Source: a virus (taxonomy: Duplodnaviria; Heunggongvirae; Uroviricota; Caudoviricetes). From it: a stretch of DNA of 64,000 bases. Below, piece by piece: positions 41,846 to 42,178 of the stretch (the stretch's first letter is position 1; each line of letters starts with the position of its first letter). Below the pieces are notes generated by a model that was not told the DNA's origin, made no database searches, and worked only from the letters and a program-made list of their open reading frames with translations. The stretch is from the IMG/VR virus record IMGVR_UViG_3300010409_000003; one strand, 5' to 3'. The position numbers and the translations under genes were made by a program.

Positions 41846-42048
41846 ATAAGTGTTGACAACATCTAATTCTACAGGTATACTCTATATTATGAAGTAAGGG
41901 TTATCAATACTTAGTATAAAAAATTCTCCTTATGGATTTATAAGGATAGTGGTTTACATCGTATATGTTGTGATGTACTATTACCTAGTCTTAGTCAGAC
42001 ACCTATCCTTGTGATAATTAAGAATCTGCTGAATACAGATTCACTATG

Positions 42049-42078
42049 ATTATCAATAGCGTCAACTATTGATAATCG
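42049..42078. promoter_or_regulatory. perfect 12-N6-12 palindrome GATTATCAATAG-cgtcaa-CTATTGATAATC upstream of the packaging/structural operon
   Basis: Exact inverted repeat. It shares the TTGATAATC core with the operator-like sites in the 6.3-kb and 37.3-kb modules. A further ATTATCA / AATCTG..CAGATT inverted repeat lies just upstream at 42022-42048. Confidence 0.6.
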
Positions 42079-42178
42079 CCTTACTTCTACAAAACCCTTT
42101 CTAAAAAAAAACTAAGAAGTTATTTCAAGGTTGTTAGTAATAGCAGCCTTTATAATAATTTACTTTAAGGAGAGTAAA

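Follow-up and report, generated by a model that had tools for sequence, protein, structure and literature searches.

A perfect palindrome ahead of the packaging genes of an uncultured phage is probably one helix of a folded leader RNA

The late leader of phage lambda is laid out as PR', 6S RNA and tR', and is read through after Q modification. The put RNAs of phage HK022 are cis-acting antiterminator folds of two stem-loops (~70 nt) that lie just past their promoters, and in the leaders of ompA, T4 gene 32 and the Bacillus genes ermC and aprE a 5'-terminal stem-loop stabilises the mRNA, for which a simple hairpin suffices. In DNA, pac- and cos-type sites are often located upstream of terminase genes. 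We analysed a window of 64,000 nt from the A+T-rich genome (G+C ~33%) of an uncultured phage, which carries a perfect palindrome ~100 nt 5' of the first gene of its terminase/portal cluster. Our preferred reading, which we hold to be probable, is that this palindrome is the DNA copy of one helix in a folded leader RNA of ~200 nt upstream of the packaging genes.

In two respects the locus resembles the lambda late leader: behind a consensus promoter that looks constitutive come a short non-coding leader, a conserved hairpin and a long late or packaging operon, and what the leader contains can vary widely among relatives. Unlike in lambda, we identified no Q-like protein, Q-binding element or pause signal and no sequence similarity, and the downstream hairpin is only terminator-like. 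As in HK022 put, the folded RNA would start within a few nt of a strong promoter and precede a long operon with internal terminator-like hairpins (e.g. ~49990-50030), but the element packs eight helices into ~200 nt, close relatives do without it, and an effect on RNA polymerase could be credited to it by analogy only. Like the 5' stabilisers, its first helix, P1, would close the RNA at a distance of 3-4 nt from its predicted 5' end, and relatives have a plain hairpin there; a need for a simple hairpin, however, leaves a conserved 178-nt multi-helix insert unexplained. The phi29 pRNA (RF00044), too, is a multi-helix RNA of ~170-200 nt whose 5' and 3' ends pair and whose gene neighbours packaging genes, but here there is no Rfam match at E <= 10, the TerL is T4-type and the genome exceeds 64 kb. 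Close relatives lack the element, which excludes a role as an essential motor part like that of the pRNA. Judged by architecture, it resembles the lambda late leader, HK022 put and the 5' stabilisers and is a member of none of them.

Gene blocks in the window run leftward at 0.5-6.2 kb, rightward at 6.8-17 kb, leftward at 19-36 kb and rightward from 38 kb to the window end. The last of these holds a T4-type TerL with an intein (42692-45088), a portal protein (45407-46987) with at most 37% identity to those of cultured phages, and a prohead protease. The palindrome was said to lie upstream of the packaging operon, and it does, in the 333 nt that separate a 472-aa ORF from a 112-aa ORF, which is followed by TerL and the portal protein. 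The 112-aa ORF (42179-42517, + strand) is the operon's first gene, directly 5' of TerL; it matches no family and is, by position only, a small-terminase candidate. The idea, taken from the related contig L028, that this ORF is exon 1 of TerL was rejected, as in the window TerL is supplied with a ribosome-binding site of its own and a TTG start at 42557.

Among 5.8 billion proteins the 112-aa protein has just nine cluster-level relatives, and we recovered their contigs, which come from marine or aquatic metagenomes. With this family as a guide, searches of viral and genome collections returned contig L001/L027 alone, and the homologues of the 472-aa ORF, all of them distant, were too far removed to help. 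Megablast and blastn searches of the region against 50,697 phage records gave no DNA-level homologue. L001 lacks the counterpart of window positions 40122-42178, that is, a 93-aa ORF, the 472-aa ORF and the entire leader (compare L001 3997-4001); its homologue of 39378-40121 (64% identical) stops 3 nt short of the homologue of the 112-aa gene, and no intergenic region is present at the leader position.

Directly after the stop codon of the 472-aa ORF stands a sigma-70-type consensus promoter, TTGACA-17-TATACT (41853-41881, + strand; score 11/12), with a predicted start at ~41888. Its hexamers are identical to those of the early promoter at 37479, and within the late region (38-64 kb) no other + strand promoter has a perfect TTGACA. 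Homologous promoters (..AATAAGTGTTGACA..) have kept this position in L024, L025, L028, L002 and L030-33.

The palindrome itself (42048-42077, + strand) consists of GATTATCAATAG (42048-42059), cgtcaa (42060-42065) and CTATTGATAATC (42066-42077), a perfect 12-6-12 inverted repeat and thus the exact 30-bp dyad that had been described. At three places in the window (15210, 37113 and 42048) there is a perfect hairpin whose arms measure 12 nt and whose loop is 3-12 nt long, against 0.03 per window expected from dinucleotide shuffles. The other perfect palindromes with arms of at least 12 nt lie at 15210-15243, at the end of ORF 14885-15223, and at 37113-37144, inside the 37-kb early module. A second inverted repeat had been placed just before the dyad. 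Its inner part, GAATCTG (42022-42028) and CAGATTC (42036-42042), is real; the outer pair, TGATAAT (42012-42018) and ATTATCA (42049-42055), is present, but its 3' arm sits inside the left arm of the dyad, so that the two pairings are mutually exclusive, and it is lost in L004, the contig that carries the only homologue of the element. A mini-ORF that spans the dyad (window, MIINSVNY*; L004, MNNVSAN*) was rejected as coding, as it lacks a ribosome-binding site and its changes are non-conservative.

Over positions 41886-42110 the + strand has a predicted folding energy of -59.4 kcal/mol (z = -6.3), a value that none of 200 shuffles reached, and the - strand of the same region gives z = -3.9. The predicted fold comprises eight helices in ~200 nt (41892-42086) and begins 3-4 nt past the predicted transcript start. 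P1 closes the domain by pairing AAGUAA (41892-41897) with UUACUU (42081-42086), and in the window it extends to a 9-bp stem, GAAGUAAGG (41891-41899) with CCUUACUUC (42079-42087), which encloses the dyad as its final hairpin. P2 pairs GUUAUCA (41900-41906) with UGAUAAU (42012-42018), the segment that had been assigned to the outer repeat, in both the window and L004. P4, UCCUUAUG with UAUAAGGA (41927-41946), holds an anti-Shine-Dalgarno-like CUCCUUA, and an 8-nt UCUCCUUA at 41925-41932 is the perfect complement of the ribosome-binding site UAAGGAGA at 42166-42173. P5 is a two-part hairpin of 14 pairs (41947-41983), P6 a hairpin GUCU-loop-AGAC (41988-42000), and P7, GAAUCUG-cugaaua-CAGAUUC (42022-42042), is the inner repeat. 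The dyad (42048-42077) is P8, the last helix of the domain, one nt from the 3' strand of P1.

The homologue in L004 (134-346) is 86% identical to the window element over 212 nt and ~90% identical outside the dyad. Among the recovered contigs the element is carried by the window, L004 and L034 only; L034 is an independent assembly with 100% identity to the window sequence, which is therefore not an assembly artefact. An RNAalifold consensus of the window and L004 gives the eight helices, in which 61 of 61 pairs form in both sequences, and the L004 copy on its own folds with z = -4.4. Eight pairs have changed on both sides (one in P1, two in P4, one in P7 and four in P8) and five show wobble changes, against 0-1 in slid controls. 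The P1 changes are one from A-U to G-C and one wobble; P2 keeps its seven pairs with two wobble changes; P5 has 13 invariant pairs and one that goes from G-C to G-U; the stem of P6 is invariant while its loop differs; and in P7 the closing pair goes from G-C to A-U and the loop differs. The L004 dyad, GAAUAAUGUUAG-cgcgaa-CUAACGUUAUUC, has the same arm length, loop size and position as that of the window, and its arms (GAATAATGTTAG/CTAACGTTATTC) carry four two-sided compensatory changes and one C-G to U-G wobble.

In total, 35 substitutions separate the two copies, 21 of them in paired columns, and no pair is broken; random placement of 35 substitutions breaks 15 pairs on average and never fewer than five (20,000 trials). 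This covariation is drawn from two independent copies, below statistical standards such as R-scape, and the consensus structure was built from the very two sequences compared. The fold holds five to seven G·U pairs, one of them in the L004 dyad, which would be C·A mismatches on the opposite strand, so that it is specific to the + strand. The dyad has diverged at 2.7 times the rate of the remaining element (11 of 30 against 24 of 175 positions; Fisher p = 0.006) and its pairing stays. The minimum-energy fold of the window alone pairs 41938-41949 with 42003-42014 instead of the P5 arrangement, so the centre of the fold (P3-P5) is uncertain; 55 of the 63 pairs of that fold are kept in L004, with six two-sided changes. 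A switch by alternative pairing, 41901-41912 with 42064-42075 and 42012-18 with 42049-55, can be drawn in the window and was rejected, neither pairing being kept in L004.

What generally marks a structured RNA, preserved pairing (here in two sequences) and low folding energy on the transcribed strand, is thus present. The earlier note had offered, as a fallback, an RNA hairpin at the 5' end of the late transcript. Compensatory and wobble pairing, the larger conserved fold and the promoter upstream all support the hairpin, but not its place: it lies ~160 nt downstream of the 5' end, as the last helix of the domain.

The element appears to be a candidate structured leader RNA outside Rfam, seen in two copies. 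Searched with Rfam 15 at the gathering threshold, the whole window gave a single match, the group I intron at 55942-56231; at E <= 10 the region 41750-42750 gave chance-level matches of at most 20 bits, against thresholds of 38-97, and at E <= 1 L004, L030, L029 and L002 gave group I introns elsewhere only. A covariance model, R1, found no additional copy in the window and 32 loci. Word scans with the exact dyad and two 16-17-mers (IMG/VR), a 19-mer (JGI metagenomes) and a 20-mer (GTDB genomes) returned only chance matches, as checked by blastn.

The main claim of the earlier note was that one regulator connects the early promoters with the late operon, since the core of the dyad arms recurs in the early promoter modules. 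The recurrence is there: TTGATAATC lies in both dyad arms and at four early-module sites (6323 and 6418 on the + strand, 37307 and 37402 on the - strand), and it occurs nine times in the window against 0.84 expected. These nine copies are not independent, because the early modules are inverted copies of each other and the two dyad arms represent one event. The divergent early regions concerned, 6300-6700 (+) and 37100-37420 (-), are inverted copies of one module of ~300 bp, each with two 15-17-bp palindromes (TGTTGATAATCRACA; TGTTGATAATCAACA type) 95 bp apart, which are kept in L001 (2118-2222) and L025 (122, 218). The palindromes are likely operator pairs, and the inverted copies around ~31 kb could promote inversion.

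If a regulator of the early TTGTTGATAATCRACAA palindromes also bound both dyad arms, control of the early promoters and of the late operon would be linked. A stretch of 10 nt in the arms (TTGATAATCG / TTGATAATCA) also occurs in the early sites, GTATTGATAACC at 41899-41910, just past the predicted start, is a third site of similar sequence, and drift in the specificity of a dimeric protein would, like a conserved helix, give symmetric changes in both arms. Indeed, a palindromic protein site co-evolving with its protein would also yield 'compensatory' changes within the dyad, which counts against the RNA reading. The other helices of the element, however, covary and use G·U pairs as well, and the L004 dyad lacks TTGATAATC. 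The early sites are invariant over ~21 nt, T[CG]TTGTTGATAATC[GA]AC (eight sites in three phages), and only their central 9-10 nt match the dyad arms; a weight matrix of the eight sites scores true sites at 32-35 bits and leaves the arms out of the 20 best window matches, each of at least 5 bits. L025 has the early operator pair, yet its late leader lacks TTGATAAT, a word with a background of 0.34 per kb. Measured centre to centre, the arms are separated by 18 bp, and as operator sites they would be placed 160-190 bp past the promoter.

Like palindromic phage operators (e.g. the 17-bp lambda OR/OL, or the phage's own early sites, TTGTYGATWATCRACAA), the dyad is symmetric, and over its central 9-10 nt it is identical to the early sites. 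Unlike them, it is built of 12-nt arms 6 nt apart rather than as a contiguous 15-17-bp palindrome, it lacks the invariant flanks of the early sites, and the match is not kept in the homologue. The dyad arms do not match the full ~21-nt site, and the core is missing at the homologous position in L004 and L025, which sets the dyad apart from the operators of the early modules. Among 20 early or middle ORFs scanned with PHROGs, none was named as a repressor or regulator, a result that is uninformative rather than negative. We regard shared regulation as unlikely but leave it some small probability, because TATTGATAAT abuts the -35 of the homologous promoter in the L002 lineage. This site, at L002 332 and at the same position in L030-L033, matches 10 nt of a dyad arm in a sub-lineage that lacks the element. 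We take the 9-nt match between the dyad and the early operators for a coincidence specific to this lineage, or for a secondary feature at most; in A+T-rich DNA it is no evidence of a shared regulator, and this corrects a tempting over-reading.

The position of a perfect palindrome so close to the terminase/portal cluster could also be read at the DNA level, as a pac- or cos-type site or a cruciform for terminase. We consider such a packaging signal highly improbable: the dyad is missing in close relatives whose 112-aa proteins are 76-87% identical, the TerL is of the T4-like Terminase_6 type, and G·U pairs with covariation in several helices speak for RNA rather than a DNA signal.

Comparison with the relatives suggests how the element came to lie in the leader. 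In L002, L023-25 and L031-33 the homologous promoter is followed by AAGGGATAGGGTTTATTGGATACCTTACCTCT, a small 5' hairpin. Its stem (AAGG..CCTTAC) is homologous to the 5' strand of P1, and the 3' flank of P1, CCTTAC(T/C)TCT, is common to relatives without the insert. Where the relatives have AAGG, a short loop and CCTTACCTCT, the window has (GAAGT)AAGG, 178 nt and CCTTACTTCT at the same place. With such matching flanks, the element is an insertion into, or an expansion of, the hairpin loop. It is absent from L001, L002, L003, L005, L023-25 and L028-33, and since close relatives do without it, any function it has is dispensable.

L030 and L028/29 carry unrelated inserts at the same leader spot. 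The one in L030 (148-316) is ~170 nt long, with a 9-bp closing stem (ATAGAGTGT..ACACTCTAT), and folds only modestly against shuffles (z = -2.3). It matches neither Rfam nor model R1 and is not a homologue of the window element.

Such a distribution raises the possibility of a selfish or neutral insertion, a 178-nt mobile or horizontally exchanged structured element whose fold serves its own spread or is inherited, with no role for the phage. The presence/absence polymorphism among relatives, the different inserts that L030 and L028 have at this spot, a left flank that differs in L004, and a neighbourhood full of invaders (homing endonucleases, group I introns and an intein) are all consistent with it, as are the ends of the window element, an inverted repeat of 11-12 nt (GTTATCAATAC / CTATTGATAATC). 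That terminal repeat, however, is lost in L004, no further copy turned up in the window, the 33 loci or the word scans of viral, metagenome and genome collections, and intron and ribozyme models gave no match. Measured against MITE-like elements, the terminal repeat is confined to the window copy, the flanks are inverted rather than direct, and no other copy was found. Moreover, 61 pairs that stay intact through 35 substitutions argue for ongoing selection on the RNA, and we consider an insertion with no role for the phage rather unlikely.

Between the element and the 112-aa gene lies a second structure, a two-tier hairpin at 42119-42159 (+ strand; GUUAUU..AAGGUUG-loop-CAGCCUU..AAUAAU) just 5' of the ribosome-binding site. 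It was found in 10 leaders of relatives, with two-sided changes in 8 of 15 pairs, and is common to all compared leaders except those of L004 and L001. It contains TATAATAAT at 42151-42159 and includes a TATAATAATTTAC that is invariant in the window (42119-42172) and nine related leaders, and single-sequence folds extend it so as to sequester the ribosome-binding site. This hairpin belongs to the leader, not to the insert; it may be an attenuator or terminator, a structure that sequesters the ribosome-binding site, or an overlap with a -10-only late promoter.

Its presence bears on whether the dyad hairpin itself might be an intrinsic terminator or attenuator that halts transcripts from the 41853 promoter ahead of the packaging genes. 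A pattern scan does call the dyad terminator-like, with 13 pairs, a loop of 6 and the tail CCTTACTTCT. A Rho-independent terminator has a G+C-rich stem followed directly by a U run, and the dyad has neither: its stem is A/U-rich, with 3 G-C pairs of 12-13, and the tail, CCUUACUUCU, is not a U run but the 3' strand of P1, while the L004 tail, GCCUUACUCCUAC, is also without a U run. The conserved hairpin 50 nt downstream, with its U-rich tail (42119-42165), is the better terminator-like structure. Termination at the dyad is accordingly very unlikely in our judgement.

Under the preferred reading of the palindrome as a helix in a folded leader RNA, rightward transcription from the promoter at 41853-41881 (start ~41888) would give a leader whose first 200 nt form a closed domain. 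P1 (41892-97 with 42081-86) would join the ends of this domain, with P2 and the hairpins P4-P7 branching off the junction and the dyad hairpin as the last arm, abutting the 3' strand of P1. The domain would be an accessory insertion of ~178 nt that replaces the loop of the small 5'-terminal hairpin of relatives in the leader of the packaging operon, and the job of the dyad would be structural, a stable helix selected for shape and not for sequence. Acting in cis, the enlarged 5' stem-loop may alter leader stability or passage through the 42119-42159 hairpin into the 112-aa gene, TerL and the portal gene. Alternatively, the domain may accumulate as a stable small RNA. The analysis shows the dyad, the fold statistics, the preserved pairing, the insertion polymorphism and the conserved promoter; transcription, RNA ends and function are inferred, and we somewhat favour the cis role. 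The arrangement in L004 would better fit a free-standing RNA: there the element lies ~545 nt from the gene with another promoter between. The promoter upstream of the L004 element is just a TGcTACAAT extended -10, read by eye.

If the RNA reading is right, packaging and structural genes spanning more than 20 kb are preceded by a single consensus host-type promoter, and the leader that it drives has its content exchanged among related phages; one variant is a well-folded domain absent from Rfam. The leader would then be a natural place to look for the timing or dosing of terminase in this uncultured phage group; at present the value of the element is that of a candidate RNA motif. As a speculation, we can imagine an undescribed family of phage riboregulators in marine myoviruses, an eight-helix module of ~200 nt lodged in the 5' hairpin of the packaging-operon leader. 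In it the fast-evolving but paired dyad could be the specificity determinant for a phage or host protein or an RNA partner, and the module might gate the terminase genes or act as a decoy.

A further non-coding element was observed at 37744-37945. A promoter, TTGACA-17-TACTAT (37744-37772, + strand), is followed by ~170 nt of non-coding sequence that ends in a 14-bp hairpin and a U run, and the same element is found at L001 2560-2755, L025 625-800 and L028 750-925. The 17-nt hairpin loop, GAAUUUCUCCUCCUU(A/U)GAC, is invariant in the four phages and holds a 16S-like anti-Shine-Dalgarno CCUCC, and 8 stem pairs covary. We see in it a good candidate for a small phage RNA directed at ribosome-binding sites.

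Another side observation concerns the start of TerL. The gene begins with TTG at 42557, preceded by a ribosome-binding site AAGGAGG, and meets an in-frame TGA at 42587-42589 (CAG TGA CAA; region 42557-42592). The extra 6 nt, TGACAA, are kept in the window, L005 (~650-690) and L001 (~5030-5070) and exactly absent in L002, L003 and L004. UGA read-through or a +6 hop of tRNA-Gln from CAG to CAA is a candidate explanation, and would restore an uninterrupted protein. For the phiHau3 terminase, bypassing of short inserts has been proposed (PMC10732093).

Within the TerL ORF (42692-45088), a LAGLIDADG intein (42692-43670) follows the P-loop GSGK and begins with Ala (GGAAGSGK|ALKHGMPVLT). Group I introns (Rfam RF00028, 64-90 bits) were found in the window at 55942-56231 (+ strand), between ORFs 54844-55953 and 56284-57177, and at L029 1885-2116 and L004 2410-2632. 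In the relatives these introns lie inside the P-loop codons of TerL, beside differing homing endonucleases (GIY-YIG, T5orf172 and HNH/NUMOD4).
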